DNA of 64,000 nucleotides from Candidatus Omnitrophota bacterium (GCA_015233195.1 JADFYE010000002.1:26184-90183), one strand, 5' to 3'. Shown: positions 9,799 through 27,425, numbered from the stretch's first letter. Notes: a model not told the origin generated them from the letters alone. A program made the numbers and translations.

Positions 9799-10739
9799 TA
9801 AAAAGTCCTCAATTCAATTGTGTTTTTTTCTATATTTCCCTTGTCCATTTTCATATCCTTTGAAAGCGCAGCTTTAGCAAAAAATCCTTTAGCCAATTCT
9901 TCCTCCCCCATAACATGCGCTATTTTAGCAATAGCCAAAAGCGAAGCCGCATGATTTGGTTCATGATGGAGTATTTCTTTAAAATAACCTCCAGCCTCGG
10001 CAAACTGCTGAAGTCCCATTAAAGCTATACCCTTATAATAAAAAAAGAACAATGGATCATTATACTGCTTCTTAATACCTTCATTTATTAATTTTAACGC
10101 TGAATTATAATCATTTTTATTAATATAACATTGTATCATTCTCTCATAACTTAACAAATAACGTTCTTCCAGCCTAGTCTTTAACTCTGCACTACTTTTC
10201 CCTTCTCCAGATAATATCTGAATATAAATTTTGGAACCAAGTAATCTTTTAAACGAATAAAACTTATCCATAGCCAACGCTTTTTGAAAATATTCAAAAG
10301 CTAAATCATATTTAGCCTGAGTATAAAAAAATTCAGCTAAATTAAAATAAGTATAAAAAAACTGCGGATCTTGTTTTACTGCACGTGTATAATATTTTCT
10401 CGCCGTAGAAATATCATTATTACAAAAAGCTAAATATCCTAAAATTAAAGAACTATCTGAAGAATCAGTAAATCTTTCCACCGTTAAATAATACCGCCAA
10501 TATAACCAAAATTTCCCCGAATTAAATTTTCCCGTATTAATATCATATTCCTGTAAATAATCAAAATTCGGCAACATATAATTTAATATCTTAACAATAG
10601 CTTTTTCATTCGCCTGTTTTAAATCCGCGAATATCGCCACAAATAAAAATATACCAAAATACAAAACAATACCTCTTTTAAATAACCACAAACCCAATTT
10701 TTTAATATTTGCAATATACAATCTGATCCGCTCTTTCAT
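9798..10739 (-). CDS. TPR-repeat protein with N-terminal TM anchor (paralog of 15060-16004)
   Basis: 313 aa with an N-terminal hydrophobic helix and TPR-like repeats (ARKYYTRAVKQDPQF.., AFEYFQKALAMD.., AGGYFKEILHHEPNH). Confidence 0.7.
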   Translation of the reverse strand: MKERIRLYIANIKKLGLWLFKRGIVLYFGIFLFVAIFADLKQANEKAIVKILNYMLPNFDYLQEYDINTGKFNSGKFWLYWRYYLTVERFTDSSDSSLILGYLAFCNNDISTARKYYTRAVKQDPQFFYTYFNLAEFFYTQAKYDLAFEYFQKALAMDKFYSFKRLLGSKIYIQILSGEGKSSAELKTRLEERYLLSYERMIQCYINKNDYNSALKLINEGIKKQYNDPLFFFYYKGIALMGLQQFAEAGGYFKEILHHEPNHAASLLAIAKIAHVMGEEELAKGFFAKAALSKDMKMDKGNIEKNTIELRTF

Positions 10740-12856
10740 TCTTGCCTCACCCTAAAAAAATTTTTTACACCTAAAAACAACAGCGCAATAAATATAAAAT
10801 AAAAAAACATAAAATTTACAACCTTAGTAATTATCAATCCCCTTGGCAAATATTCAAACATCACTGTATTCTTTCCCTCAGGAAGCAGGATACCTTTAAA
10901 AGCAAAATTAGAGCGAACTATAATTCCAGGCTCCCCATTAATCCTAACGGTCCACCCCGGAAAATAAACATCATTTAAAACTAAAAATTTAGGACTATAA
11001 AAATTTGTTTCTATAAAAAAATGGTTAACATCACTGGGCAATAAACGGAATCCTTCTCCGGGTTCTCCTGGCAAAATCTGCACCGTATCTTCTCCATTCA
11101 AGCTTTTAACAAATACTTTTGATCTATTATTAAGATCTTTAATATTATTGGGCTTAAACATAACTGTCTCATCCGGAAAAAATTGCACTTTATCATAAAA
11201 AATTACTAGATCTTTCAAATAATTTTTCTTAACTTCTGGATCCGTAAACATAAAAAAAGTATTAAAATAAGGCGTGGTTATCCATAACGCTACCGGCGAC
11301 TCCTTTTTGCTATCCTCTTCAACATTTGAAAAAGTAGAACGATCCTTTTCATTAATTAACGGAGTTTTAGCCTGCTGCACCAATTCAGCTGATTTCCAGA
11401 CCACCGAATAAACCTCAGCCGCATTTATTAATACTGCTAATAACAATATGCAAATACCAAATATATTAGTAAATTTTACTTTACTAACCAGATACAGCCA
11501 CCAAAATAACCAACTTAATATCACTAAAAAATAAACCGTAAAAATATTTATCCCAACAAATATTAAATACACCAGAAAAACTATATGTAAAAAAGTTATT
11601 TTTTTAAACCACTTAAATTTATCCTCGGAATTACTCATAGCCTCCTTAAACAATCCTTTAAATAAGCCTACTGACAATAAAATCAAACCCGGTAAAAATA
11701 TCAACCAAGTTAAATAATTAGTATTGCGAAAATATTTAAAAACAAAAAAATACTTGTTAAGAAACGCTCGTATCGGGAAAGCCTCTGGAGATCCAATCAC
11801 AAAAAATATTAATAATATCAAGGTCAAAGAGATAATGCGTCTATTTAGGCGAGTTAAACATCCTAAGAAAAATAATAAATAAAACAAAGGAGACATATAA
11901 AATGTATAAATGTCCAAATCTTCTTTATTTTGAACTAAAGAAGCCGGATTCCAATGTGCGAATATGCCCAAATCAACTTTTAAAGAATGCTCACTTACCT
12001 TAAATCCATTGCCAGCGAGAGAGACCAGCTGTTGACCCCGATTAGGTAAAATTATGTCGCCCCTCTTACCCATTTGAAACAAATTTATTAAAGGGATCAT
12101 CGCACATAATATTGCCGTAATCCCAATAAATGTTACCAAAGGGTGTTCCTTAAAAAATGTCTTACCTCGGTCCAAAGCTTTTAATAATTCACTAAAATAT
12201 ACAATACTTACAACTAAAACTGCTACCGCAAGAATCAAAATAAAATACACTGGAATATACGTAGTCAAAAGTATCATTAATGTTAAAACACTACCCAAAA
12301 AACATAATTTATTCGGAACCCGCCAAAAAGAAAAGAAAAAATAAAAAAACCAAATACCCGGCGTAAGAATCAAAACAATATAAGTGTAGTACAATATAAA
12401 TCCCCAACACGAAAACAATAAACCCATAGCCGCTAACATCGCAAAAATTCTATCTTCCCAAATTAACCTTGCTAATAAATAAAAACCAATTACCCCAATA
12501 AAAAAATAACCACATAAAAAACTCAGATACACCACATTTATCGGTAATCCAGCTTTCAACAAAATTACCATAAGACCATAAACTGGATTATAATCACCTA
12601 TCCTTCGAAGAAAAAACTCATTAGGAACTCCACCCGGATCACTGCGAGTCCATAAAGGATAAACCCCAGAACTTATCGTAGAAACAAAAGCTTTTATACG
12701 CTCATTATATGACCAAGCTTCTTCCGGGAAACTCAAGCCTCCTTTTAAAAAGGGGGTCATTAAAAGCAACCAAAATAAAAAAACAAAAGAGAAAAATAAA
12801 ACAACTTTTGCTCCAGAAGAAATCCGATTATTTATAAAAGAAAAAATATTTTTCAT
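10736..12856 (-). CDS. Polytopic membrane protein, YfhO-like glycosyl/lipid transferase family (paralog of 13007-15070)
   Basis: 706 aa with many TM helices. The C-terminal soluble tail has the YfhO-type ending (YFPGWTVRINGEPG..FAFKGILLPEGKNTVMFEY) followed by a final TM. Confidence 0.5.
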   Translation of the reverse strand: MKNIFSFINNRISSGAKVVLFFSFVFLFWLLLMTPFLKGGLSFPEEAWSYNERIKAFVSTISSGVYPLWTRSDPGGVPNEFFLRRIGDYNPVYGLMVILLKAGLPINVVYLSFLCGYFFIGVIGFYLLARLIWEDRIFAMLAAMGLLFSCWGFILYYTYIVLILTPGIWFFYFFFSFWRVPNKLCFLGSVLTLMILLTTYIPVYFILILAVAVLVVSIVYFSELLKALDRGKTFFKEHPLVTFIGITAILCAMIPLINLFQMGKRGDIILPNRGQQLVSLAGNGFKVSEHSLKVDLGIFAHWNPASLVQNKEDLDIYTFYMSPLFYLLFFLGCLTRLNRRIISLTLILLIFFVIGSPEAFPIRAFLNKYFFVFKYFRNTNYLTWLIFLPGLILLSVGLFKGLFKEAMSNSEDKFKWFKKITFLHIVFLVYLIFVGINIFTVYFLVILSWLFWWLYLVSKVKFTNIFGICILLLAVLINAAEVYSVVWKSAELVQQAKTPLINEKDRSTFSNVEEDSKKESPVALWITTPYFNTFFMFTDPEVKKNYLKDLVIFYDKVQFFPDETVMFKPNNIKDLNNRSKVFVKSLNGEDTVQILPGEPGEGFRLLPSDVNHFFIETNFYSPKFLVLNDVYFPGWTVRINGEPGIIVRSNFAFKGILLPEGKNTVMFEYLPRGLIITKVVNFMFFYFIFIALLFLGVKNFFRVRQE

Positions 12857-13006: not shown

Positions 13007-15070
13007 ATGAAAAAATATACAATAATATTATTATTTATTGCAGCAGTCATAATATGGTTTTTATCCTTGAACGATTTTTTCACTGGAAAAATCCCAATCC
13101 GTGGTGACGCCCAATCGTATCTTGAACAAACATTATATTATGCCTATCACATGACCAATGGTACTTTTCCGCTTTGGAACAATCAATGGGCATTAGGAGT
13201 ACAAAATAATTTTTTCCTGCAACGGATAGGGGCTATTAACCCTTGCTATCTAATTATAATCGCTGCTTTAAAAATCGGGGTTGCACCTAACCAAGCATAC
13301 TTACTCTTTATTGCCATATATCATTTACTTTCAATCATCGGATTTTATCTTATTTGTAAAGAACTACTAAAAAGCAGAATATTGGCGTTTAGCGGAAGTC
13401 TAATTCTTCTTTTTTCTACACACTCAATAAATCTTTTTACAACGTATACTCACCTTATATTTGTTCCTTTAGTCTGGTTTTTTTATTTTCTACTAAAATT
13501 CACTCTTGCTCCTAAAAAGCTATGGCTGTTAGGTATGACATTATGTATATCAATCTTATTGAACACTTATATTCCGATATATTTTTTATTTATATTTATA
13601 ATTTTCTTGATATTATATTGCGCCTTTTACAGTGCTACGCTGCCGTCGATATTTAAAAATTTTTTCCAATTCTCCCAAAAAAATCTAGTAACATCTTTAG
13701 TTTGCCTTATATTTATTATCTGTTCTTCTGTACCAGTATTATTGTTAAAGAAATCCGGGGATCAAAAGAATTTTGTGCTGCCTAACCGCCAAGATTCGAA
13801 TTCTGTAAGCGCGCTTACCATACCAATTAAAAACACAAAACAATTCGATTCGGTTGGAAATATATATTTTGACGAACAATTCGGCAATTATAAAGATATT
13901 CAATTACAAATTTCATTCTGGCCGATAACTCTATTCATATTGCTATTATTAGGACTAATAACACCCATAACCAGACTAAATTCTTTACTACTTTCCTGGG
14001 GATTAATCTTAACTATAATTTCTTCACCAAATTTAATGCCGGTAATATTTAAATATTTATATACGCATATCTACCTGCTTCACTATATTCGCATGCTCCA
14101 CTTTTTTCTATGGTTCGCGATCGCGCCAATATTCATACTACTAGCACTCGCACAATTTAAAAATCTACTCGATGTTCCAATTAACACCAAAAAAGATCGC
14201 TTTTTTTTATTAATTTATTTAAGCGCTATTGCTACTTTGCTTTTTATTTTATTATTATCAAATCATAATGATCTACTATCCCCTCCATTAACTGTCATTT
14301 TTATTTTTGGAATACTATGTCTGTATTTTTTAAAGAAAAAAAATTTTAGTTATCTGCTGCTTATAATTATAATCATCCAACCTATTGAAGTTTTTCATTA
14401 CCTTTCAACCAACGCTAAACAATTCGAATATAAACCTATACTATTAAATTTTACAAAAAACCCCTTCGTAAATAATTCCTACATATTTGAAAATTATTAT
14501 GCACCCCAAAATCAATTCGACCTAGTTAAAAACATTACAGAAAAAAGCCTATATAAATATTCTAAATACAACTTCATCGTATATGACAATGTCCAAACTG
14601 CTATTCCAGGTCCAGCAGCATATGCACAATTTAAAAACAACATTGATTCCCCAATAAACACCGCCTTAATATTTGAAACTAACACTCAAACCAATCTGGA
14701 TTCTTTAAATACACAAAAATCAGCTCAATTTATAACCCAAGCATATCCAGAATTTAAAATAACAAAATGGGATCCTATGGATATACAAATAAAAACCAAC
14801 TTTCCCAAAAATAAATTTTTAGTTTTCAATGATGCTAACCATGCGAACTGGCTTGCTTACATCGACCATAAAAAAACTTTAATTTTTACCGCAAATTTAG
14901 CATTTAAAGGTGTCTGGATACCGCAGGGAGAACACATTACACAATTTAAATACCACAATCCGATTGAACAAAATATATATTTTATTTTGTTGATCGGAAA
15001 TTATTTTTTGTTATTTATATTGCTCTTATCAACGTTGGGACTTTTAACTAAAAAAGAAAATGATAGATAA
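13007..15070 (+). CDS. Polytopic membrane protein, YfhO-like family (paralog of 10736-12856)
   Basis: 687 aa. Aligns by eye with the 706-aa protein (e.g. FPLWN..NFFLQRIGAINP vs YPLWT..EFFLRRIGDYNP). C-terminus reads HANWLAYIDHKK..LAFKGVWIPQGEHITQFKY. Confidence 0.5.
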   Translation: MKKYTIILLFIAAVIIWFLSLNDFFTGKIPIRGDAQSYLEQTLYYAYHMTNGTFPLWNNQWALGVQNNFFLQRIGAINPCYLIIIAALKIGVAPNQAYLLFIAIYHLLSIIGFYLICKELLKSRILAFSGSLILLFSTHSINLFTTYTHLIFVPLVWFFYFLLKFTLAPKKLWLLGMTLCISILLNTYIPIYFLFIFIIFLILYCAFYSATLPSIFKNFFQFSQKNLVTSLVCLIFIICSSVPVLLLKKSGDQKNFVLPNRQDSNSVSALTIPIKNTKQFDSVGNIYFDEQFGNYKDIQLQISFWPITLFILLLLGLITPITRLNSLLLSWGLILTIISSPNLMPVIFKYLYTHIYLLHYIRMLHFFLWFAIAPIFILLALAQFKNLLDVPINTKKDRFFLLIYLSAIATLLFILLLSNHNDLLSPPLTVIFIFGILCLYFLKKKNFSYLLLIIIIIQPIEVFHYLSTNAKQFEYKPILLNFTKNPFVNNSYIFENYYAPQNQFDLVKNITEKSLYKYSKYNFIVYDNVQTAIPGPAAYAQFKNNIDSPINTALIFETNTQTNLDSLNTQKSAQFITQAYPEFKITKWDPMDIQIKTNFPKNKFLVFNDANHANWLAYIDHKKTLIFTANLAFKGVWIPQGEHITQFKYHNPIEQNIYFILLIGNYFLLFILLLSTLGLLTKKENDR

Positions 15071-16004
15071 TAAACTACCCCAAAACCGTAAAGAACTTAA
15101 GCTCTGGTTATTTACCAGAATGCTATTCCTTTATCTTTGCGTATTTATTTTTGCTCTACCATTTATTGATATAAAAAATTTTAGAAATTATATTAATGGT
15201 TTACACATGAACTACTGTCTCCCCGTATTTAAAAATATTGTTGAATTAGAAATTTCCAACAAACCGCAGCCTATAGGTAGGATAAATTCATATATTTACT
15301 ACTACAAATTATTACAACGCGCCTCAAGAGAAAAATCAGTCGCAAATTCAACACTGGCTTTCTTATACGCATATAAAAGCCAAATTAATAACAGCGTCAA
15401 AAACTATGAACTTGCCTTTAAAGAGAATCCGACGTTTAAAACCTTTGCTTATAATTTAGGTTTAGCTTATTCCAAGCAAGGCAAATTTCAAAAATCTAAT
15501 GAAATATTATTACGTAATTTCGAATATTCTTTTGATCTTTCTGTTGCATTCATTGACGATTCTTTTGCTTATCAACAAATTCTCGGTAGTTGTGGGCTAT
15601 ATTACAAATCTGATATTCAAAAAATAATTATATCCCGAAATTCCGACGCGCATTTACTCGTGGCACAAAATTATTTAATGTTACAAGACTATACAAAACT
15701 ATTAGATTTTTCACTGAAATGTCTCAAAGATGAGCTTATATACAATCCAGAAGTATTTTTATATTACGCAGGTGTTGCTGAATATAACTTAAATAATCCG
15801 CAAAAAGCAAAAATGTATCTGGAAACTTTCATAAATAAAACCAGAGATGATCCGGACGCATTATATTTCTTAGCTTTAATATACAAAGCGAACAATGAAC
15901 AGGAAAAAGCAAATCAACTTATTGCCAGAGCACTAAGTGCTAAAGCACAAAATACAACTGTAATTCAAATGTTATTACAACAACTAAAATTTCATGTACT
16001 ATAA
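15060..16004 (+). CDS. TPR-repeat protein with N-terminal TM anchor (paralog of 9798-10739)
   Basis: 314 aa with the same length and layout as the 313-aa protein (LKLWLFTRMLFLYLCVFIF vs LGLWLFKRGIVLYFGIFLF), followed by TPR-like repeats. Confidence 0.7.
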   Translation: MIDNKLPQNRKELKLWLFTRMLFLYLCVFIFALPFIDIKNFRNYINGLHMNYCLPVFKNIVELEISNKPQPIGRINSYIYYYKLLQRASREKSVANSTLAFLYAYKSQINNSVKNYELAFKENPTFKTFAYNLGLAYSKQGKFQKSNEILLRNFEYSFDLSVAFIDDSFAYQQILGSCGLYYKSDIQKIIISRNSDAHLLVAQNYLMLQDYTKLLDFSLKCLKDELIYNPEVFLYYAGVAEYNLNNPQKAKMYLETFINKTRDDPDALYFLALIYKANNEQEKANQLIARALSAKAQNTTVIQMLLQQLKFHVL

Positions 16005-17346
16005 AAAACTGCTCCTCTTAAAAGTACTGATAATAGGTCTATTGACCGGATTAACTATTTTCTATTTTCATCTTCAACAACCCAAAACTCAAAGTAATAC
16101 TATATTTACAAAATTATTTGATTCTCAAAATCACCCGTCAGGATTTAAATTTTATACCGATGAAATTAATCCCAAAATTCTGGGTTACGGAGGCAAATTC
16201 CGCATCTTAGTAACTTTGGATTCTGATCTTAAAATCACTGAAGCGCAATTAATCGAACATCACGAAACCGCTGCATACATAAATGAGAGAATAGAAAAAT
16301 TTCTTTACCAATTTATAGGTAAATCAGGAGAACATTTTAAAATCGGGCAAAATATTGATGCTATGACCAGAGCAACGATCAGCAGCAAAGCGTTTACCTC
16401 TTCAATTGAACAAGGTATAGAAAAAATCCGGCAAATAATTAGTGACAGGCACTATTTTTCTAAAAAAAATACTAAAAAAATAGTGCCTGTCACTAATTAT
16501 TTTGACCAAATTATACCCTTTTTACTATTCATGCTCGCCATACTCGCAATGCTAAACGCAAACCAAATTTTACGCTGGATCACACTATTAACCTCCCTAA
16601 TATATTTAGGCATAATAAAAAGCTCCATGCTTTCAATAATCACATTGGGAAATATCTCCCTCGGACAAACACCAGATTATAACCTTAATCCGATCTGGTA
16701 TATTTTGATGACACTGAATTTGCTTACCCTAATATTATTCAAAAATGTTTACTGCGCTAGTATCTGTCCATTTTTAGCAGTACAAGATATTGCCAATACC
16801 ATCAGACAAAAATTACATTTTTCTTCTATACCAATGAACAATAAATTGCGCATAACTAAATATTTTGTTTTAGGCATAGCCTTATTACTTTTTATAATTT
16901 ATCGAAACACAGACGCTATCATATTTGAACCCTACGTCTTATTATTCAGTGGAAACCCATCTGTATACGGTTTAATACTATTAATCATTCTTATCGCAAC
17001 CTCATTTTTTATTTACCGTTTCTGGTGCAAATTTTTTTGCCCATGGGGAGCTTTACAAAAATTAATATACAAACTAAACCTTTTTACTGTTCCAGCGCCA
17101 AAATCAACCATTGAAGAAAAAAATGATTCTAAAAAAATATTCCTGACCCTCTATATAATAACTATAGTATTTATAATTCTGACTATAGCCTTCAATATCA
17201 CAAATTTAAAAAAATCTACTATCTCTGCACACTCTCCAGGTACCAATGTCTTAATGACAGAAAAAAATGAAAGTGATAAAATAAAAAAAGAATTAGAAGC
17301 AAAAGGAATTAGACCAGTTTCAGCAAAATATTGGGAAAAATTATGA
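15994..17346 (+). CDS. Membrane protein with periplasmic FMN-binding domain and NapH/NosR-type CxxxCP Fe-S motifs
   Basis: 450 aa. FMN_bind-like segment (IDAMTRATISSKAF), then polytopic TMs with CASICPF and CKFFCPWGALQ motifs. Confidence 0.6.
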   Translation: MYYKKLLLLKVLIIGLLTGLTIFYFHLQQPKTQSNTIFTKLFDSQNHPSGFKFYTDEINPKILGYGGKFRILVTLDSDLKITEAQLIEHHETAAYINERIEKFLYQFIGKSGEHFKIGQNIDAMTRATISSKAFTSSIEQGIEKIRQIISDRHYFSKKNTKKIVPVTNYFDQIIPFLLFMLAILAMLNANQILRWITLLTSLIYLGIIKSSMLSIITLGNISLGQTPDYNLNPIWYILMTLNLLTLILFKNVYCASICPFLAVQDIANTIRQKLHFSSIPMNNKLRITKYFVLGIALLLFIIYRNTDAIIFEPYVLLFSGNPSVYGLILLIILIATSFFIYRFWCKFFCPWGALQKLIYKLNLFTVPAPKSTIEEKNDSKKIFLTLYIITIVFIILTIAFNITNLKKSTISAHSPGTNVLMTEKNESDKIKKELEAKGIRPVSAKYWEKL

Positions 17347-18311
17347 TTAAGTGCGATCTTTGCCCCAGACATTGTCAAATCGCTCCTGGAAAACGGGGAA
17401 ATTGCGGCGTGCGCATAAACTTAGACGGAGAACTTAAAACTCTTGTATATGGGAAACCCTGTGCAGTACATGTTGACCCTATTGAAAAAAAACCTTTATT
17501 CCATTTTTTACCAGGTAGCAAAGCTTTTTCAATAGCAACCGCAGGATGCAACTTACACTGTAAATACTGCCAAAACTGGGAAATCTCCCAACGTCTTCCC
17601 GAAGATGTGGAAAGCATAGATATGCCGCCGCAAAAAGTGGTGGATGAAGCCTTGCGTACAGAATGCAAAAGTATAGCTTACACTTATTCAGACCCAATCA
17701 TTTTTTATGAATACACTTATGATATTTCAAAACTGGCTAAACAACACAATGTCCGAAATGTACTAATTACTGCCGGGTGGATAGAGCAACAAGCCTTGAT
17801 CGATCTCTTGCCATACACAGACGCAATCAAAATTGATTTCAAAGGTATAACTGAAGAATTCTATCAAAAAATGTCTGAAGCTACTTTACAACCAGTATTA
17901 GACGCTATAAAAACTATCCATAAAAATAACACCTGGCTAGAATTGGTAAACCTAGTAGTACCAACTTGGAATGATTCAGACGCTGACATAGAGAAACTTT
18001 GTTCCTGGATACTTGATAATGTGGGACCAAATACTCCGCTGCATTTCTCAAAATTCTGGCCAATACATAAACTAGAAAATCTACCCCCTACCCCTGTAGC
18101 AACGCTCACTCGCGCGTGGGAAATAGCAAAAAACAAAGGCTTAAATTTTGTTTATATTGGTAATGTGCCCGGACACCCCGGTAATAATACTTATTGTCCA
18201 CAATGCAAAAAAATCGCCATTAAACGAGAAGGTTACGAGATATTAGAATATAATTTGGACAATGGCACATGTAAATTTTGTGCAAATAAAATTCCTGGAA
18301 TATGGGAATGA
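17343..18311 (+). CDS. Radical SAM enzyme, AmmeMemoRadiSam-system type (PflA-like activase fold)
   Basis: N-terminal Cys cluster CDLCPRHCQIAPGKRGNCGVR, radical SAM motif CNLHCKYCQNW, C-terminal CPQC..CKFC. ATG 17343 overlaps the upstream stop (ATGA); the track used TTG at 17331. Confidence 0.8.
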   Translation: MIKCDLCPRHCQIAPGKRGNCGVRINLDGELKTLVYGKPCAVHVDPIEKKPLFHFLPGSKAFSIATAGCNLHCKYCQNWEISQRLPEDVESIDMPPQKVVDEALRTECKSIAYTYSDPIIFYEYTYDISKLAKQHNVRNVLITAGWIEQQALIDLLPYTDAIKIDFKGITEEFYQKMSEATLQPVLDAIKTIHKNNTWLELVNLVVPTWNDSDADIEKLCSWILDNVGPNTPLHFSKFWPIHKLENLPPTPVATLTRAWEIAKNKGLNFVYIGNVPGHPGNNTYCPQCKKIAIKREGYEILEYNLDNGTCKFCANKIPGIWE

Positions 18312-18472
18312 AAAATATGACAAGACGAGAATTTTTGAAATTACTAGGATTGACCTTAGCCGCGATTCTTATACCATTAGATAAAATATCCAAAGGACTA
18401 AACTTTGGTAAGAATAAAACCAGCCTTATGTCCGCACGCTATTACACTCAAAATGATTCCCTTGCAGGATAA
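18308..18472 (+). CDS. Small ORF (54 aa from ATG 18308, 51 aa from ATG 18317) consisting essentially of a twin-arginine (Tat) signal peptide; not in the supplied ORF track
   Basis: Own translation: MKNMTRREFLKLLGLTLAAILIPLDKISKGLNFGKNKTSLMSARYYTQNDSLAG. ATG 18308 overlaps the radical SAM stop (ATGA). It matches the Tat consensus (S/T)RRxFLK. Confidence 0.45.
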   Translation: MKNMTRREFLKLLGLTLAAILIPLDKISKGLNFGKNKTSLMSARYYTQNDSLAG

Positions 18473-18901
18473 CTAATTTTTTTTCTTAGGATGCTGTGCA
18501 ATTATTTTATTTATACGAGTAACCAATTCATACGCCAATTTATCTTTTTTTCGCGCAATAATCTGATCTGGATATTTATGTTCTATTACACTATCCAATT
18601 CCCGAATAATACGTTCAAACCCTCCGACCAGCCTGCTCGAAACTGTAAAAGCTATAAATACTGTTAAAACGAACATCGACCATACTGTAACTAATAATAC
18701 AAAAGCTGCTTGTTCAATAAAATGCACCATGTCTATTGATGATCCATAAATTAAATTCACAATCGCCTGCATATGCATATTCCTTACTAAAAATGTAACC
18801 GTCAAAGCAATTATCAACATCGGCACAAAAGTAATCATGATTATCGAAAACTGATATTGATTAAACCGAAAAAATTTATTTCGCTTCACTTTAGCTGGCA
18901 T
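18473..18901 (-). CDS. Small two-TM membrane protein, unknown function
   Basis: 142 aa with two hydrophobic helices and a C-terminal amphipathic segment. Lies 1 nt downstream of the spermidine-synthase-like gene. Confidence 0.5.
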   Translation of the reverse strand: MPAKVKRNKFFRFNQYQFSIIMITFVPMLIIALTVTFLVRNMHMQAIVNLIYGSSIDMVHFIEQAAFVLLVTVWSMFVLTVFIAFTVSSRLVGGFERIIRELDSVIEHKYPDQIIARKKDKLAYELVTRINKIIAQHPKKKN

Positions 18902-18902
18902 A

Positions 18903-21125
18903 TTAACTCCTTAATAAAAGTAAAATAACTAAAATATTTAAAAATCCGCATAACCAGGACGTCTGGGTAATACCTAAAACCGGTACCAAAAAAATTCCGG
19001 CGGTTAAGGCGCCCAAAGCCGCTCCAATTACATCTACTGCATACAAATTACCTGCAACATTAACTTGTGATTGCCGCATAACCAATGTCAAAACATACTG
19101 CAGCCCGACCAGAACGCCAATTATAAATGCCAAAAACATTAAGCCCGCGAATAAAATATTTGCTACCAAAGGCATCACCACAGTACCACGAAATCCCCAA
19201 AAAATAAACGGTAAAAAACCAGAACAAATCAACCACAACATCTGTATAACAATAAAATTTCGCCGAGAATTTTCAACACTAAATACCCGGTTATTTTTAA
19301 AAGTCCCACTCCCGATCACTAATCCCAACATAAAAAACGCAATTATCAAACCTATCATTTGATACACATATCCAAATATACTTTGAAAAGCTAAAATTAT
19401 CAGTACCTGATAAACCATGCTCAGAAATCCAGCCCAGAAAACAGTAGAATCATATATCAAATTTTTATTGAACTTTGCCAATATGCCTAAAATAATAAAC
19501 AAAAATAATAAAACGCCTGCCACTTGCCCAAAATATATTTTTTGCAATGAGGTTATCCATACTCCAAATTTATTATTAAAACGGCTTGCCCAAATTCCCA
19601 TGTCAAAAAGAAATGCAATTGGACGCTCATCCGAATTTATCTGCCCCGGCTCAAATAAAATTTTTTCTACTGCCGCAATCCTAGCCTTATCAAAGCGGTC
19701 AGGTAAATAGCCTGCTGTTATAAATTGCGTATTAATACCTTTGGTTCTTATTTGTTCTTCAAAAAATTCGGAACTCCATTGCCCAATATCTTTTCCTTTA
19801 GCAACCAAAAAAATATGCCGCTCACCAGGTAAAGAATGAACCGTTTTAAAATATACCCTCAATGCTCCATAAATCGACTTAAGCAGATACTTGTTCTCGC
19901 TATTAACATAATTTTCTGAAGATGATACTGAAAAACTAAACACCCCGTTATCAGCTAACGCCTGTCCAACCTCTCTAAAAAATTCTTTAGTATAATACCG
20001 ATTCAATAATAAAGTTTTGGGATCACTTGCAGCCAATATAACCACATCATATTTATTCTTACTACGCTTTAAAAAATTTCGTCCATCCGCATAAATAACA
20101 TTTACCCGTGAATCTTTCAATACCTCTGTATATTTTTTCGGCAAATGTTTTTGACTCAAAATTATACTTTGTGGATCCAATTCAACATAATCGACACTAA
20201 TATCACCATATTTTAATACTTCATTTAATACTCCTCCAAGTCCTGAACCCAACACCAAAACCTTTTTAGGTTCAGTATGCCACAACATTGCGTAATGAAC
20301 TGTTTCTTCCGCAGACAAAACATCGCCGGTGGTAAAACCAAGCAAACCATTCTCAAATAAACTATATTCTCCCCTAGATCCAACTAAATTTAATTCGCCA
20401 TAAGGAGAACTTTTCGTCTCAATCAAAGTCATAGGCAACCATTGCGTTTGCTCATCCATTCGCTCAAAACATAAATAAACTAACAAACCAACAAATAAAC
20501 ACATGCCCCATAAAAAAATAACTTTATTTTCTCCCCATAAACAACCCATACCCCATGCTAATAAAGCTAAAATAACTATCAACTGTAAATTAGCAAAAAA
20601 ATATACCAAACCAAATGAAAATATAACTCCGGCTACAGTAGAACCAATAGACTCTAAATTATAAATACTACGGGCATGCTCAGTTTCATTTTTTGCAATC
20701 TTACCAGCTAAACAACATAAAGAAAATAACCACCCTGCAATAAAACCTAAAACTGCAGTTATTGCAAAAGCAATTTCTACCATCTGCAAAACACCTATCA
20801 ATTCTCCGGGATATAACCTAAAGAAAGATCTGGCATGACGACCTAAAAAAACTACTGCAGGCAAAACAATTGAAAGCAACAAAAAACTATACCTTAGATA
20901 AACCGAAACATCCTCATCACGTAAAACTAGCCATCTTCCAGCGCCAGCACCCAAACTTACCCAAAAAAGCCAAAACCCAAGAACCAATGCGTATCCAATC
21001 TCATTACCAGCAAAAACCTTATTACATTCCCTCAATATAATTATCTGAGTCAGCGTGGATATAACTCCAATACCAAAAGCTGTAAAAAATATAGACTTAA
21101 TATTAAATGATCTTCGTGAATGCAT
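18903..21125 (-). CDS. Fused polytopic membrane domain / spermidine synthase-like aminopropyltransferase
   Basis: 740 aa. Central soluble domain with a SpeE-like fold signature (SPYGEL..LFENG, VLVLGSGLGGVL, YVELDP, VVILAASDP), flanked by many TM helices on both sides. Confidence 0.75.
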   Translation of the reverse strand: MHSRRSFNIKSIFFTAFGIGVISTLTQIIILRECNKVFAGNEIGYALVLGFWLFWVSLGAGAGRWLVLRDEDVSVYLRYSFLLLSIVLPAVVFLGRHARSFFRLYPGELIGVLQMVEIAFAITAVLGFIAGWLFSLCCLAGKIAKNETEHARSIYNLESIGSTVAGVIFSFGLVYFFANLQLIVILALLAWGMGCLWGENKVIFLWGMCLFVGLLVYLCFERMDEQTQWLPMTLIETKSSPYGELNLVGSRGEYSLFENGLLGFTTGDVLSAEETVHYAMLWHTEPKKVLVLGSGLGGVLNEVLKYGDISVDYVELDPQSIILSQKHLPKKYTEVLKDSRVNVIYADGRNFLKRSKNKYDVVILAASDPKTLLLNRYYTKEFFREVGQALADNGVFSFSVSSSENYVNSENKYLLKSIYGALRVYFKTVHSLPGERHIFLVAKGKDIGQWSSEFFEEQIRTKGINTQFITAGYLPDRFDKARIAAVEKILFEPGQINSDERPIAFLFDMGIWASRFNNKFGVWITSLQKIYFGQVAGVLLFLFIILGILAKFNKNLIYDSTVFWAGFLSMVYQVLIILAFQSIFGYVYQMIGLIIAFFMLGLVIGSGTFKNNRVFSVENSRRNFIVIQMLWLICSGFLPFIFWGFRGTVVMPLVANILFAGLMFLAFIIGVLVGLQYVLTLVMRQSQVNVAGNLYAVDVIGAALGALTAGIFLVPVLGITQTSWLCGFLNILVILLLLRS

Positions 21126-22006: not shown

Positions 22007-25000
22007 TTATAGACCCAAAAATCCCCGCAGGTCTTTCATAGGCAAGATATTAAAAATCACCGGCTCAAAACCTGAAGAATTTTTTAATTTTTCTAACATG
22101 ACCGGATCAATGTTAAATTTTATTGAACCTACCGCTGCATCCACTTTTAAATTTTCATTAACTGGCGTAAGATCAATACCTCCGTTATTTACCATCGCAA
22201 AATCAAACCCTTTGATCGCCTCTGCTATTGCTAACGCTTTAGGATCATTTTTTTGAGATTTAAAATATTCAAGCAAATTATGTATAACTAAGCTTCTTCT
22301 TTTCTGGAATTTTTCCACATCGATCTGATCTTCAGTATATCCGCTATCCAATGCCATTTGTCGTATATCAAATGCTGAAATATATAATAATTCATTAATC
22401 GCTTGTGTCATTCGTTCAGGAGAAAGCTCATCTAAATAATGACTCCACCAAGAATAAAAGAAACTAGGATATAACGTTGCCGATCTCTCATCAAACGCGG
22501 CATCTTTTCGCATTAACCAAAGTGCGACATTTCCAAAAAGATCATGCATTAAATACCTAGATTGCCCATTAATTGTCCTGACAAATAAATTCCGATCTCC
22601 TGCCTTAAAATCCGCATACAAAGTAAACTGCATAAAAAGCAAAAATTCTTCCAAGCCCGAACCATTTTTTTGTTTTAAATCATTAAATTCAATATCATCA
22701 ATATTATCCGTAAGGATTCCCCATGAATCTTTAAGATCAATAAGATACTGCTCTTTAATCATATTTATATTCTCATATTGACCCGCTAAAATTTTCCTAA
22801 AACGCGGCACATTACATCCCATTCTCTCTGCTAATAAATAATGCATCCACTCAGCTGTGGACGCGCCGCTATTAGCTATTTTCAAATAATATTTTTTTTG
22901 TGTTTGCTCATCAATAAATTCCCAAACCGGATGAATACCCATTTTTTTCACAACTTTTAAAGTACCTATGTTTTTTACAAACAATGTTGAATGACTTTCT
23001 CCGTCCCCGGTGCTATTTTCAGCTAAAGCAGCATATGTTTCACGCATTAATTCAACTGACTCTGATGTAATAAAAGATTGTCCCCGCTTTGAAATATTCT
23101 TTATAATTAATTCACCTTGCCCTCCTGAACTTTTAAGCACAAGCTCAATATGTTCACTAGAAATATAAGGATTAAACTCAAATACTTTAATACTATTCTG
23201 ATGACCAGGATCCCGACCAATATAAATTTCACTAGCTTTCCCTTCTTCAGGCATAAGCAACTCCAAACTTTTCGATCTCCCATCAATAGCAGTAACTATA
23301 ATCCCTCCCCCGCCAGGTCTATACTTAATCTCAAAACGATTTTTATTATTTACCAACCATATTACTAATGGCGCGCCCGTCTGTTTAAGCAAATCTAGCG
23401 GCACTATTAAACCATCCCGATCTAAAATCTCTTTTAAACCATTTCGAGGAATTTGAATCGCCCTTGACGCAAAGGCATCAAGCACCATAGAATCATAAAA
23501 TTCATCATCAACTATTGATATTGCCGGTCCATTTATCATTGCCTTATCTACATCAACATCTATCCCTTGCGCCCGCAATTCAGGCTCAAGATCTGCCCAC
23601 AATTGATCTAAAGACTCATAATATTCTCCAGGAATTGCGAGCAAAGCTTTAAGCACGCTATTTCTTATACCTACTGGCACTTCTTCAATCCCGGTTATTT
23701 CAGTAATTGGATGATCTTTCATGTCTATATCACCAAAAATTCCCTCCCCAGTTAACTTAGTATTAACACTAACCAACGTTGCGTTAGGAGCATAACTTTT
23801 TAATAAAAAACACCCTATCATATCTATATCCTTATATTTCAACCCATACTTAACTTGCTCAACTGGCAATGTGGTTTGTGCCATATGAAGTAAATCCCAA
23901 TCAATTATCTTGGGATCACCTTCCGGAGTAACAATAAGATTATTAAATGAAATATCTCCATGAAAAGCCTTATATGTTCTATGAACATAAGCTAATTTTT
24001 TAATTAATTTTACCAATATTTTTATACGTGCTCTAAAATCAGTGATTTCATCAAACTTACGACCCGGAGCATATTCCATTTCCAAAATTCTATTCGTATA
24101 AAATAAATGCGTCGCAAACATATTCATATTGGCAAACAAAGACTCGACTGTCTCATCAAATATTGAATCATTAAAAAATTTAGCTATCTCATCAAAATCA
24201 AAATGATTAGAACGTTTTAAAAATTTTAAAACTACTGTTTGACCATATTGACTATTCTCAATTATTTTAGTCGCCTTATAAACTCCATTGTCGTAAGAAC
24301 CTAAAACTTCCAAATCCTTATAAACAACCTCTCCATTTTTAAGAATGACTTTTCTTTTATCAATTAAAGCGTTACTTATAATAAAATTCAAACCTGTACC
24401 TTGCGGACTATCCAGATCAATCACTAATGGCTTATCAACAATCATTGCAGGATCAGGACTTAAAGACTCGCGTAAACCTCCTTCAATTAGCATAAATTTT
24501 TTATTATCAGAAACACCCGGATCATTATTTGTAAATAACATCGCTTGATCAATTTTATCGACAAATCCTACCCCGCCTGAAAAATATTTCTTTGGTATAA
24601 CTTTTTGAGCGGTAGGATCATATTCTTCTTTAATAAAATCATATGCACCTTTTTTAAACGACTCAACATATTTATCCCATATTTTTTCCGCTTCTAACGG
24701 ATCATTAATGTTTATACCTTTAATCTTATTGCGATCAGAATAAACTGCATTTACCAGGCTCTCTTTTATTTTTTTCTTATACCAACTCGCCAAAATTAGA
24801 GAATTATAAATCTGACGCAAGGGCGCAAAATTCTCTCCCTCATTAACTTCTTTTTCAATAACAGGAATGATCACTTCGCGGATAGCTTGTTCGGCAAGTT
24901 TAATTTTTCCAGCGCTATTTTTAAGCGCTATGTAATCAGTTTCCAAAAGCACTTTCAACTTAGTTTCAACAATATAGGCAGCCCCAGCTTTTAAATTCTC

Positions 25001-25618
25001 ATAAACTACCGCCTTAGCCGGCACAATCCAAACCTTATTAAAGGTATCTACAGGAATATCTATATTCCCAAATTGTTTATAAACTTCCGCGTAAATTTTA
25101 TCCCAAAACTTTTTACCCTGTTCACCGTCTGGATACATCAAAGTAGCAGTTATCTGTTTTAATATATAATCCTGCGCTAATAGATCTCTGCCCATTTCAG
25201 TATTACCAAATGATTTAGGCACAATCCTATTTTTTTCATACGGCGATAAATTAACCCACAAATCTTTTTCAGGTGTGGTAAGCGAAGCCAAAAAATATTT
25301 GATAAGCTTATTTGCTTCACTGTTAAGTTGTGATCCTTCGCTACGCTCAGGGTCATTTTTGATAAAGGCATCGCCTTTATCAAAAATGAAATCAAATTTT
25401 AACGGATCGTTCGGAAAAACCTTTATACCCTTTAAAACTGCTGGGGTAAAAGGTTTACTCAACCCAACCATAGTACCCGGAACAGGCATAATTGAAACAA
25501 CTTGAGAAAAAGAAATCGTAGGGAAATTAAATGCAGTCAAAGTAAATGCAACAACTAAAAATATAGTCAATGCTTTACGAAATAAAAAACCAAAATTATA
25601 AATATAATTTTTATTCAT
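22007..25618 (-). CDS. Giant secreted multidomain protein: signal peptide, ~370-aa conserved N-domain, protein-kinase-like domain, FHA domain, second atypical kinase-like domain, 58-aa C-terminal GGIDL module
   Basis: 1203 aa.
- Kinase-like: VVLKFLK .. HGDISFNNLIV .. IIDWD.
- FHA-like: IYIGRD..ISSEHIEL..IIKNISKRGQSF.
- Second kinase-like: GDRNLFV .. MHDLFG.
- The N-terminus aligns with the 57673-60744 product.
- The C-terminus aligns with the C-termini of both the 57673-60744 and 61550-64000 products. Confidence 0.7.
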   Translation of the reverse strand: MNKNYIYNFGFLFRKALTIFLVVAFTLTAFNFPTISFSQVVSIMPVPGTMVGLSKPFTPAVLKGIKVFPNDPLKFDFIFDKGDAFIKNDPERSEGSQLNSEANKLIKYFLASLTTPEKDLWVNLSPYEKNRIVPKSFGNTEMGRDLLAQDYILKQITATLMYPDGEQGKKFWDKIYAEVYKQFGNIDIPVDTFNKVWIVPAKAVVYENLKAGAAYIVETKLKVLLETDYIALKNSAGKIKLAEQAIREVIIPVIEKEVNEGENFAPLRQIYNSLILASWYKKKIKESLVNAVYSDRNKIKGININDPLEAEKIWDKYVESFKKGAYDFIKEEYDPTAQKVIPKKYFSGGVGFVDKIDQAMLFTNNDPGVSDNKKFMLIEGGLRESLSPDPAMIVDKPLVIDLDSPQGTGLNFIISNALIDKRKVILKNGEVVYKDLEVLGSYDNGVYKATKIIENSQYGQTVVLKFLKRSNHFDFDEIAKFFNDSIFDETVESLFANMNMFATHLFYTNRILEMEYAPGRKFDEITDFRARIKILVKLIKKLAYVHRTYKAFHGDISFNNLIVTPEGDPKIIDWDLLHMAQTTLPVEQVKYGLKYKDIDMIGCFLLKSYAPNATLVSVNTKLTGEGIFGDIDMKDHPITEITGIEEVPVGIRNSVLKALLAIPGEYYESLDQLWADLEPELRAQGIDVDVDKAMINGPAISIVDDEFYDSMVLDAFASRAIQIPRNGLKEILDRDGLIVPLDLLKQTGAPLVIWLVNNKNRFEIKYRPGGGGIIVTAIDGRSKSLELLMPEEGKASEIYIGRDPGHQNSIKVFEFNPYISSEHIELVLKSSGGQGELIIKNISKRGQSFITSESVELMRETYAALAENSTGDGESHSTLFVKNIGTLKVVKKMGIHPVWEFIDEQTQKKYYLKIANSGASTAEWMHYLLAERMGCNVPRFRKILAGQYENINMIKEQYLIDLKDSWGILTDNIDDIEFNDLKQKNGSGLEEFLLFMQFTLYADFKAGDRNLFVRTINGQSRYLMHDLFGNVALWLMRKDAAFDERSATLYPSFFYSWWSHYLDELSPERMTQAINELLYISAFDIRQMALDSGYTEDQIDVEKFQKRRSLVIHNLLEYFKSQKNDPKALAIAEAIKGFDFAMVNNGGIDLTPVNENLKVDAAVGSIKFNIDPVMLEKLKNSSGFEPVIFNILPMKDLRGFLGL

Positions 25619-25715: not shown

Positions 25716-27425
25716 TTATTTCTTTAACATTCTGTAAACTTGAGTAAGAAAAATATCAATGGCTTTTTCAGGCTGAAATTTAAGTTCTCTGCTTTTGAGC
25801 GCCAAAGAAAATGCCTGCTCATATTCACCTTTATTATATGCTTCTTGCGCAGACAAGAACAAACTAGTGGCTTGTTTTTCATCGGAACCAGCTAAACCAT
25901 AAGCTCTTAAAGCAAAAGGTCCCTCAGCTAATAATTTTACTTTAAATGGTCCTTTCGAAAAATCAAATTCAGAACCAATAAATATCGTACAAGGCATAAC
26001 TTTCAACACGTCATCCGCCAATATGCGCCGATTACAACTCTCTATATGATACAAAAATTTATCAAAAAATAAACTGTGTGGAAACAGATCACACACCTGC
26101 TGTTCTTCTCCATGAAGACTCCATTGATTGCCATATAACACCGCATGATCCGGAGCCGCTGCAGGTTGACCATAAAAACCAATAAACATACACTGTGGAT
26201 AGTTAACTCTTAAATTCCTATAAAAAGCAATTGTCCGCATCTTAAGATTTTCCAGACTATTTCTATAAATAAACGCTGTACCAATCCCTTGAACTACAAA
26301 AACCACAATAAATATCAATATTATTTTTTTAACACGTTCTACCTTAGAAAGCTGGTCTAAATAAAAAAATAAAAATAATCCGCTAAACAAACTTATACCA
26401 GGTAATAAATAATGCGGGTTATATTGTTTAGCCACCAACGCGAACTGCAACATAATCCCACACGCTATTACAAAAAGAAAACGGGTTTCTTTCTGATCTT
26501 GCTTTTTAAAAATCTTAATAGCGCTTAAGACTAACGACGTCACAACTAACATCATCAAAAACCAGTACGGCTTCACAATCCCACTCCACCAAGTACTAAA
26601 ATACTTTGAAATATCAACAAGCCCTTCTTTGCCTTGTCCATATTGTCCGGTATGAGTAGTTAAAGCTACTGCCCATTTCCAAAACCTCGGATAAAAACTA
26701 ACTATAGGTAAAGTACAAACTATAAAAGATATCAAACTTACAAAAATAAAAAAAACTTTCATCCGCCATTTAATTATCATTAACGGCAACAATAAAATTG
26801 GCAAGAATGTCAATTTTGCCGCAACACCTAACCCACAAATCAAACCTAAAAATAAAACCGACGCCCAGTCTTCTTTCTGATCTTTAGATAAAAATAATTT
26901 AAAAAAAAACAAATTAAAAAGGAGCATTATACTTATAAGTAACGGCTCAGGATCAACATTAGCTACTACTGGTATAATTGCCTCCATTGACCCCCAAGAT
27001 TTTAATACCAAAAAATTAATTATAGGAAGCTGCGTTAATACCGCCGCGATTTTATCTCCGGTCTTCTTATAAACATATAAAGCAAACCATGCAGACATAA
27101 AAGAAAATCCAAATATCAATACCGTGCTTATACTTCTTAAATATAATTCCGGATCGCTGATAACTTTATGAATAACATCATTAGCATTACTACCTAAATT
27201 CATAGACCAAATAACCAAGAATCCAATAACTTGAAGCGGCGTGCCAGGATGATCAACATGCGCGGGGGAAAGACCATTAACCAAATTAAGACTATTAAAA
27301 AGATATGGGTAAGACGGATCCATATTCAACCAATACGGACACGCTGCTGCCTTCAATATAAAAGACATACAAGATACAATAGTTGGTATGACAAGAATAA
27401 ACCAATATTTACGTATAAAATTCAT
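25716..27425 (-). CDS. Polytopic membrane protein, GT-C-fold glycosyltransferase-like, with C-terminal soluble TPR-like tail (paralog A)
   Basis: 569 aa with about 12 TM helices. N-terminal conserved stretch DPSYPYLFNSLNLVNGL..HPGTPLQ. Same length as, and colinear with, 27744-29453. Confidence 0.45.
   Translation of the reverse strand: MNFIRKYWFILVIPTIVSCMSFILKAAACPYWLNMDPSYPYLFNSLNLVNGLSPAHVDHPGTPLQVIGFLVIWSMNLGSNANDVIHKVISDPELYLRSISTVLIFGFSFMSAWFALYVYKKTGDKIAAVLTQLPIINFLVLKSWGSMEAIIPVVANVDPEPLLISIMLLFNLFFFKLFLSKDQKEDWASVLFLGLICGLGVAAKLTFLPILLLPLMIIKWRMKVFFIFVSLISFIVCTLPIVSFYPRFWKWAVALTTHTGQYGQGKEGLVDISKYFSTWWSGIVKPYWFLMMLVVTSLVLSAIKIFKKQDQKETRFLFVIACGIMLQFALVAKQYNPHYLLPGISLFSGLFLFFYLDQLSKVERVKKIILIFIVVFVVQGIGTAFIYRNSLENLKMRTIAFYRNLRVNYPQCMFIGFYGQPAAAPDHAVLYGNQWSLHGEEQQVCDLFPHSLFFDKFLYHIESCNRRILADDVLKVMPCTIFIGSEFDFSKGPFKVKLLAEGPFALRAYGLAGSDEKQATSLFLSAQEAYNKGEYEQAFSLALKSRELKFQPEKAIDIFLTQVYRMLKK

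Follow-up and report, generated by a model that had tools for sequence, protein, structure and literature searches.

We analysed a 64,000-nucleotide stretch of DNA from a Candidatus Omnitrophota bacterium (GCA_015233195.1 JADFYE010000002.1:26184-90183), hereafter the window, and focused on three overlapping genes and especially on the smallest of them. The first, open reading frame 1 (ORF1), encodes a flavo-iron-sulfur membrane protein, and the second (ORF2) a radical S-adenosylmethionine (SAM) enzyme, hereafter rSAM. The third (ORF3, the micro-ORF) encodes a 54-residue peptide with a twin-arginine motif. These genes, their joints and a convergent neighbour are located as follows:

15994..17346, plus strand: ORF1, 450 residues, NapH/NosR-like flavo-iron-sulfur membrane protein
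17343..17346, plus strand: ATGA overlap of the ORF1 stop and the rSAM start
17343..18311, plus strand: rSAM gene (ORF2), 322 residues counted from the ATG, family TIGR04337
18308..18311, plus strand: ATGA overlap of the rSAM stop and the micro-ORF start
18308..18472, plus strand: micro-ORF (ORF3), 54 residues, with TRREFLK at 18320-18340, a short hydrophobic region at 18341-18376, a basic linker, SARYYTQNDSLAG at 18431-18469, and the stop
18903..21125, minus strand: spermidine-synthase-like membrane protein, 740 residues, convergent, polytopic

The earlier note on this DNA had named the three products as a NosR/NapH-like protein with flavin mononucleotide (FMN) and iron-sulfur (Fe-S) sites, an AmmeMemoRadiSam-type rSAM and a micro-ORF with a signal for twin-arginine translocation (Tat). 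The Pfam and NCBIfam matches and the exact TRREFLK motif bore out these identities, and a base-by-base check reproduced both ATGA overlaps. Such overlaps are frequent in compact operons and are not remarkable alone; the feature beyond chance is the conservation of the micro-ORF. Its other in-frame starts lie at 18302 (giving 56 residues) and 18317, and alternative starts account for the length range of 51-54 residues given in that note.

The micro-ORF product, MKNMTRREFLKLLGLTLAAILIPLDKISKGLNFGKNKTSLMSARYYTQNDSLAG, was identical to NCBI HQL25_01140 from a Candidatus Omnitrophica metagenome-assembled genome (MAG). TRREFLK matches the Tat consensus S/T-R-R-x-F-L-K exactly and is followed by a moderately hydrophobic region. 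A word-indexed homologue search with the peptide returned only the peptide itself, and an exhaustive phmmer search returned 3 proteins among 1.8 billion representatives. Look-ups of the exact sequences of the window rSAM and the micro-ORF matched no recorded contig. A single 54-residue query is too weak, so gene context is needed to see the conservation. We collected 80 loci around close rSAM relatives, one genome per species, which together with the first loci gave 84 related loci. An ORF of 50-74 residues lay directly 3' of the rSAM gene in 55 of them, in Omnitrophota, Planctomycetota, Elusimicrobiota, Myxococcales-like and unclassified MAGs. The alignment consensus was xxxxxxTRRxFLK, ~14 uncharged residues, a basic linker, and KEARxYxxxDxLAG directly before the stop. 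These homologues were 23-60% identical to the window peptide, with the reading frame, the stop position and the two motifs kept. The two nearest ORF1 homologues lie in the same cassette, followed by the rSAM gene and then by a 54-55-residue ORF ending in ARYYSQNDSLAG or ASFYRRADDLAG. Moreover, the JGI and NCBI gene callers independently predicted the micro-ORF in an Omnitrophota contig of 1.6 Mb that shows the same layout of five genes. Sequences that contain the cassette include OY759724.1 and the 1.6-Mb contig DAOTDT010000001.1.

The position of the micro-ORF was similarly constrained. Among 21,338 small open frames from 1.05 Mb of related loci, a motif scan matched immediately 3' of the rSAM gene at 49 loci and gave five weak matches elsewhere. 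In a reverse test, a degenerate DNA pattern (EA[KR]YY, three residues, D-x-LAG, stop) matched eight metagenome contigs, always within an ORF of the micro-ORF type. Six of these ORFs lay directly after an rSAM gene, and two directly before Memo-AMMECR1 and spermidine-synthase-like genes. At L090 (5866-5907, minus strand) and L092 (3083-3124, plus strand), a micro-ORF ending in VEARYYSRGDHLAG lay directly 5' of a Memo-AMMECR1 fusion and a spermidine-synthase-like gene, and no rSAM gene was found within the 11-13 kb of contig sequence. L087 showed two micro-ORF 3' ends 1.5 kb apart (187-228 and 1688-1729, both on the minus strand); one copy was complete and followed the rSAM gene, and the other had no recognisable Tat motif.

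The rSAM scored 386.9 bits on NCBIfam TIGR04337 (cutoff 220), and its residues 2-322 aligned to model positions 12-334. Positions 1-11 were missing from the enzyme, which begins with MIKCDLCP and bears no signal. The micro-ORF encodes the missing N-terminal segment, of which the C-terminal tail of ORF1 carries a further copy. Two cysteine motifs were located in the enzyme:

17352-17375, plus strand: N-terminal motif CDLCPRHC, before the radical SAM cluster motif
17547-17570, plus strand: CX3CX2C cluster motif CNLHCKYC, residues 69-76

The CNLHCKYC motif was invariant among 73 rSAM homologues, and the invariant cysteines of the enzyme were C4, C7, C11, C21, C69, C73, C76, C285, C310 and C313. 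Those outside the cluster motif (C4, C7, C11, C21, C285, C310, C313) suggest additional metal sites, which would fit a need for export in the folded state. The AlphaFold model had a predicted local distance difference test (pLDDT) score of 94.5. Its nearest solved fold was the pyruvate formate-lyase (PFL) activating enzyme 3cb8, with a target-normalised template modelling score of 0.81, and the PFL-activase-type similarity was also present at the sequence level. Pfam and NCBIfam returned only the Radical_SAM core and this similarity, with no SPASM or RRE-type peptide-recognition domain. Each locus gave a single rSAM match, which ruled out a second, tandem copy downstream.

The missing segment is present in homologues that carry their own leader. 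In these fused proteins (378-398 residues), a Tat signal is followed by a linker, an EA[KR][YF]Y segment and then CxLCPxxC. The leaders start with KRRQFFK, TRRDFLQ, ERRKFIK, NRREFLS or SRREFLK plus LAGC. The fused leader of L042 (Aminicenantes) reads MKRRQFFKTAGG...VEARYYKKHPDREIECLLCP, and that of L084 (Chloroflexia) has SRREFLK followed by a LAGC lipobox. Other fused Tat-leader enzymes were found in L058 (Nitrospirota), L055 and L063 (Anaerolineae), L078 (Caldiserica), L080 (Verrucomicrobiota) and L079. Classical Tat signals were present on the enzyme itself in eight lineages. The archaeal homologue L081 has a segment of the EA[KR][YF]Y type and no signal.

A 58-position micro-ORF profile, run against 22,835 open frames, matched the N-termini of fused rSAMs almost end to end (E-values of 1.2e-5 for L058, 1.3e-5 for L042, 6.7e-5 for L078 and 1.4e-3 for L079). 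In L042, TIGR04337 positions 1-333 correspond to residues 46-376, with the model beginning exactly at the EARYY segment. The profile match and this model start indicate that the micro-ORF is homologous to the leader of the full-length enzymes. Its stop falls ~2 residues short of where the first cysteine would be, the point at which the window rSAM gene begins. The two arrangements also excluded each other: of 18 loci whose rSAM has its own leader none had a micro-ORF, whereas one was present at 52 of the 58 evaluable loci where the rSAM is truncated (Fisher p = 1e-12).

A second leader-like module lies on the other side of the enzyme gene. Upstream of nearly every truncated rSAM gene we found a strongly hydrophobic transmembrane (TM) helix, a charged linker and a G[IL]xPxxA[KR]YW... 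segment that ends at the rSAM start. In most related loci this anchor module is a free-standing gene of 65-100 residues. In the window and in L001, L010, L013, L017, L018, L026 and L054, it is joined to the ORF1 C-terminus, and in L004, L034, L037, L046 and L069 to the rSAM N-terminus; in L047 it bears a lipobox. The window copy, which ends at the rSAM start and repeats the leader segment, is composed as follows:

17137..17343, plus strand: "anchor" leader module on the C-terminus of ORF1, with a TM helix at 17137-17199, a charged linker, and SAKYWEKL at 17323-17343

In Pirellulales, a 1300-residue fusion joins a spermidine-synthase-like protein, a NapH-like protein and a TM helix, and ends in ...REAEFYKKVE. 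Since this gene is not adjacent to an rSAM start, the tail itself must be what is conserved. Four Zixibacteria-like loci (L031, L035, L038, L045) combine a truncated rSAM with the upstream TM anchor only (...FEEAKYWRQLE...), with no Tat micro-ORF in the flanks. In the Coatesbacteria-like L040 and L048, the fetched flanks of a truncated rSAM contained neither a Tat micro-ORF nor another leader module. We also note an alternative TTG start of the window rSAM at 17331 (MGKIMIKC...). It would extend the overlap with ORF1 to 16 nucleotides (nt), and the spacing from the ORF1 YW segment to the first Cys would then be that of the fused homologues (~10 residues).

The micro-ORF and the upstream anchor are distinguishable by several measures. 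RR was present in 44 of 54 micro-ORFs and RK in 7, whereas RR is not a conserved feature of the upstream anchors. The Kyte-Doolittle maximum over 19 residues was 1.43 for the micro-ORFs and 2.37 for the anchors (p ~1e-12), and the longest uncharged run was 14 against 20.4 residues (p ~1e-12). Read from the alignments, the second aromatic residue is mostly Y in the micro-ORFs and mostly W in the anchors. The hydrophobic region of the micro-ORF is Tat-like rather than anchor-like. Judged from its sequence, the micro-ORF is a conserved, separately encoded Tat signal joined to the first N-terminal segment of full-length rSAMs. The arrangement may simply have arisen when a Tat-leader-rSAM gene was duplicated in tandem and the first leader and the second enzyme body were then lost. 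The suggestion that the micro-ORF might be a truncated gene is sound as evolutionary history, given its homology to the 5' leader of longer Tat-signal rSAM genes. It fails as a refutation, as the micro-ORF is kept as a gene of its own with a conserved stop in several phyla.

ORF1 contains the following elements in addition to the anchor module:

16009..16068, plus strand: N-terminal hydrophobic segment (signal anchor), read from the sequence
16183..16419, plus strand: FMN-binding domain, Pfam PF04205, residues 64-142
16357-16377, plus strand: candidate ApbE flavinylation motif DAMTRAT, within the FMN domain
16753..16770, plus strand: first CX3CP motif, CASICP, residues 254-259
17026..17043, plus strand: second CX3CP motif, CKFFCP, residues 345-350

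Pfam matched FMN_bind at residues 64-142 (1.3e-12) and Fer4_5 in two stretches (1.9e-15). The NCBIfam scores for NosR, NapH and RnfG were weak and all far under the cutoffs: the NosR equivalog hidden Markov model (HMM) gave 49.3 bits (cutoff 1000) and NapH 42.6 (cutoff 234). In NosR and NapH, the FMN domain faces outwards and the two CX3CP motifs face the cytoplasm. By analogy with NosR, PceC and the NapH-like systems, the N-terminal signal anchor of ORF1 would place its FMN domain outside, and ORF1 may serve as a transmembrane electron conduit. The C-terminal tail is predicted to be periplasmic, because an extra TM helix follows this NosR/NapH-like topology. ORF1 combines PF12801 with an FMN domain in one protein and so falls under the operational definition of a NapH-like flavinylated system, which asks for both in one protein or gene cluster (PMC8238504); the FMN domain of NapH-like proteins is extracytosolic (PMC8238504). 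An ORF1 homologue adjoined the rSAM gene in ~45 of the 84 loci, and a flavinylation-type motif, D..[ST].A[ST].[ST], was present in 26 of 45 ORF1 homologues.

Memo and AMMECR1, whose local absence had been pointed out before, were indeed not found in the window: tblastn with a Memo-AMMECR1 fusion gave no match in the 64 kb, and an HMM built from 24 such fusions, searched against the open frames of all six reading frames, gave nothing better than E = 0.28. Of the 84 related loci, 27 had a Memo and/or AMMECR1 homologue beside the rSAM gene, in 24 cases a full-length Memo-AMMECR1 fusion. Memo-AMMECR1 fusion proteins (Pfam Memo 1.6e-58, AMMECR1 6.4e-46; TIGR04336 and TIGR04335) adjoined the rSAM gene in ~26 loci, among them the Omnitrophota locus L016. 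All 24 full-length fusions begin with a hydrophobic signal or anchor, and eight have a strict lipobox.

The convergent spermidine-synthase-like membrane protein probably belongs to the cassette. It matched Pfam Spermine_synth (2.7e-27) through a central domain of the type that binds SAM or decarboxylated SAM, and NCBIfam NF037959 "fused MFS/spermidine synthase" (44 bits, cutoff 40). Its gene adjoined the rSAM gene in ~45 loci. In L068 (4236-7733, Elusimicrobiota) and in Pirellulales it is fused to the ORF1 homologue; besides L068, the loci with such fusion genes are L056, L057, L061, L062, L066, L070-L073 and L076. A crude positive-inside count, to be taken as a rough estimate, placed the SAM-fold domain outside in 27 of 30 homologues. 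The protein may bear on a route of SAM to the periplasm.

All of these lines of evidence point to the outer face of the membrane. The tail of the micro-ORF would be outside because the RR-bearing N-terminus stays inside, and in the split operons the micro-ORF holds the only Tat signal. We lean towards a reading in which the Tat leader, split off from its enzyme, accompanies the folded Fe-S rSAM through the membrane to a site where the enzyme receives electrons from the flavinylated conduit. The rSAM, made without a signal and without its first segment, would fold and gain its Fe-S clusters in the cytoplasm. The micro-ORF product would then bind it through the Tyr-Tyr (YY) segment, and the Tat signal would carry the pair through the Tat translocase as a "hitchhiker" escort. 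At the outer face, the enzyme would be held beside ORF1, whose C-terminal tail, predicted to be periplasmic, is the second copy of the docking segment. ORF1 would relay electrons from Fe-S centres on the cytoplasmic side to the periplasmic FMN and on to the rSAM cluster. In this scheme, we infer the physical binding, the actual export, the hand-over to the ORF1 tail, the electron flow, the source of SAM and the chemical reaction. The earlier note had listed a substrate, an escort, a small redox subunit and a truncated gene as readings, of which the escort is the best supported. A broader proposal is that the whole AmmeMemoRadiSam-type system is extracytoplasmic, comprising the rSAM, the Memo-AMMECR1 lipoprotein where present and the SAM-fold domain, powered by the NapH-like conduit and with the Tat signal encoded as a separate 54-residue gene. 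On this broader proposal our judgement is evenly divided.

Several observations weigh against the escort and export scheme. The Tat HMM scores of the micro-ORF were just under the cutoffs (PF10518 15.9 against 22.7; TIGR01409 15.7 against 16.7), and no obvious AxA cleavage site was found in its sequence. The micro-ORF tails of Pirellulales lack the EA.YY motif, and six loci with a truncated rSAM showed no Tat micro-ORF in the fetched flanks. Eight fused leaders (L004, L034, L037, L046, L069, L060, L064, L075) have no RR and resemble a Sec-like signal or a plain anchor, which is hard to square with export of a folded Fe-S enzyme. In an AlphaFold model of a micro-ORF and rSAM chimera, the YY segment was undocked with a pLDDT of ~50; the underlying alignment held no leader sequences, and the model is weak evidence either way. 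We must also note that radical SAM enzymes need SAM, and we know of no periplasmic SAM pool.

The micro-ORF could instead be a substrate, namely a small Tat-exported precursor whose Tyr-Tyr and C-terminal Gly region is modified by the rSAM, together with Memo and AMMECR1 where present, into a peptide-derived cofactor or product, as in the PqqA/PqqE and MftA/MftC pairs. The strong conservation of a C-terminal motif with aromatics and a terminal Gly would agree with this, as would the nearest solved fold, since the PFL-activating enzyme acts on a peptide loop. Memo was reportedly placed by Burroughs et al. in 2019 within an aromatic-ring dioxygenase superfamily (as cited in PMC7159879), and the micro-ORFs of L090 and L092 stand beside Memo-AMMECR1 with no rSAM nearby. 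However, the same segment is the enzyme's own N-terminus in the fused and canonical forms (model positions 1-11), and no micro-ORF accompanies an enzyme that has its own leader. The second copy of the segment ends a Sec-inserted membrane protein, out of reach of a cytoplasmic enzyme, and the rSAM has no SPASM or RRE-type domain with which to recognise a peptide. We consider a substrate role unlikely.

It is also conceivable that the micro-ORF is an uncleaved signal-anchor subunit that tethers or stabilises the complex of rSAM and ORF1 without any role in export. The rSAM would then work at the cytoplasmic face, reduced by the cytoplasmic Fe-S centres of ORF1. Such a role would explain why no AxA site is visible, and it would keep the enzyme where SAM is available; Lys and Arg abound in the tail of the micro-ORF, there are several fused leaders without the RR motif, and small anchor subunits such as RdhB exist. 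Nevertheless, S/T-R-R-x-F-L-K would not persist in different phyla on a plain anchor, and such an anchor would not have a hydrophobic region so much weaker than those of the true anchors encoded in the same operons. With the RR-bearing N-terminus inside, the tail would be on the outside. Moreover, there are homologues with classical Tat signal peptides fused to the enzyme, one of them with a lipobox, and the Memo-AMMECR1 partners are secreted or lipoproteins. This role seems to us quite unlikely, somewhat below that of a substrate.

That the micro-ORF is a non-functional remnant or a chance ORF is very improbable: it is very short, searches with it alone return almost nothing and it likely derives from the 5' end of a longer gene, but its frame, stop and two motifs are kept in homologues of 23-60% identity, the motif is specific to the position after the rSAM gene, and precisely the loci whose enzyme has its own leader are without a micro-ORF.

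Compared with the earlier note, four points change the description of the escort and its surroundings: the N-terminal truncation of the rSAM relative to the family model, the ORF1 C-terminal tail (extra TM helix and ...SAKYWEKL) as a second copy of the leader, the convergent spermidine-synthase-like protein as a probable part of the cassette, and the presence of Memo and AMMECR1 in related loci as signal-peptide-bearing fusions. With these, what had looked like an orphan rSAM among unusual partners reads instead as an AmmeMemoRadiSam system in extracytoplasmic form. As a precedent, the earlier note had offered the formate dehydrogenase region TAT target family (TIGR02811), to which the micro-ORF gave no family match. 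Its members are also small Tat-signal proteins beside a redox enzyme, but the C-terminal motif and the genomic context of the micro-ORF differ, and TIGR02811 was not among the NCBIfam hits at E ≤ 0.1.

Among the closest known systems are the Tat hitchhikers, an established route in which one subunit bears the signal and a signal-less Fe-S or flavin enzyme is co-exported (PMC6719666, PMC10924467). As in our cassette, the gamma subunit of flavin adenine dinucleotide (FAD) glucose dehydrogenase, HyaA/HybO and PaoA illustrate a signal carried by one partner only, while the cofactor-loaded catalytic partner has none (PMC6719666, PMC10924467, PMC4273604). Their escorts are folded proteins of at least 18 kDa, often with cofactors of their own, whereas the escort here would be a signal peptide plus ~25 residues. 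It would also be split from the enzyme's own leader, and a second, non-Tat docking segment is found on the conduit.

AmmeMemoRadiSam (TIGR04335 AMMECR1, TIGR04336 Memo, TIGR04337 rSAM) is a named but uncharacterised gene set, and Memo-AMMECR1-rSAM systems are said to be described in the 2019 work of Burroughs et al. The window shares its TIGR04337 enzyme with that set, and related loci share the Memo-AMMECR1 fusions. In contrast, the window has neither Memo nor AMMECR1, its enzyme lacks model positions 1-11, and all components are predicted to lie outside the cytoplasm. Its enzyme is accompanied by a NapH-like flavoprotein, two leader modules and a spermidine-synthase-like membrane protein.

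ORF1 shares the N-terminal extracytosolic FMN domain and the PF12801 Fe-S protein with two CX3CP motifs with the NapH-like systems, which include NosR and PceC/RdhC (Meheust et al. 2021, PMC8238504). For most NapH-like flavinylated systems, according to that paper, it is unknown which reaction they serve (PMC8238504); no rSAM partner is given in it, and "radical SAM" has 0 occurrences. Unlike NosR and NapH, ORF1 is far under the equivalog cutoffs and has an extra C-terminal TM helix and a docking tail.

In the reductive dehalogenase module, RdhA is a Tat-exported enzyme with Fe-S and corrinoid cofactors, RdhB a small anchor and RdhC a NosR-like FMN/Fe-S protein. The resemblance to our proposed scheme lies in a Tat-exported Fe-S enzyme outside the membrane, a small partner in the membrane and a NapH-like conduit that is flavinylated (PMC8238504 cites PceC). 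The difference is that RdhA has a Tat signal of its own and RdhB serves as an anchor rather than a signal. Between this module and the rSAM or the micro-ORF, we found no sequence relationship.

The junction of ORF1 and the rSAM gene and the flanking genes showed further features. A programmed -1 frameshift that would fuse ORF1 to the rSAM at the ATGA and A-run was rejected: there is no canonical slippery heptamer, and related loci show gaps, different overlaps or, in L001, a 200-nt insertion at the junction. The insert in L001 (9156-9354, ~200 nt) separates the ORF1 homologue from the rSAM gene where the window genes overlap; it contains long inverted repeats (gtagtatatagtatgtcgtatgtgg ... ccacatactacatgc) and resembles a small mobile or hairpin element. 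The window also encodes a 142-residue protein with two TM helices and no family match (18473-18901, minus strand), located between the micro-ORF and the spermidine-synthase-like gene, with a counterpart in L001 (139 residues) and none in L093. Upstream lie two large YfhO-like membrane proteins and a TPR protein (10736-12856, minus; 13007-15070, plus; 15060-16004, plus), and the TPR gene and the start of ORF1 share 11 nt. In L001 and L093, too, YfhO/PMT_2-like and TPR genes are found upstream, which suggests a connection to envelope glycosylation. Further away, 22007-25618 (minus) encodes a 1203-residue protein with weak protein-kinase, RIO and FHA matches, all under the cutoffs. Two neighbouring same-strand ORFs at 25716-27425 and 27744-29453 (both minus), each of exactly 569 residues, may be tandem paralogues.

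Tat hitchhiking by small signal-bearing subunits and NapH-like flavinylated conduits are known. Our literature search turned up no report of a radical SAM enzyme that is periplasmic or targeted by Tat, or of such a split-leader system, and nothing functional on AmmeMemoRadiSam. To our knowledge, all characterised radical SAM enzymes are cytoplasmic, as they need SAM and a low-potential reductant. A family of Tat-signal rSAMs, with the signal fused or supplied in trans, together with a periplasm-facing FMN/Fe-S conduit would take this chemistry to the cell envelope and would raise a concrete question of SAM supply there. If the proposed export is true, periplasmic radical SAM chemistry needs a SAM route, or SAM that is tightly bound and regenerated beyond the membrane. 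The micro-ORF would then be the smallest hitchhiker escort described as far as we know, a "split signal peptide". The cassette suggests a minimal form of folded-protein targeting, with a signal peptide and a docking segment as a gene of its own, which is relevant to Tat biology and export engineering. In terms of annotation, such small genes are easily dismissed unless gene context is used. Memo and AMMECR1 have the human homologues MEMO1 and AMMECR1. Should one large branch of AmmeMemoRadiSam be extracytoplasmic and tied to an electron-transport chain, the hunt for its substrate would be narrowed to envelope or exported molecules.

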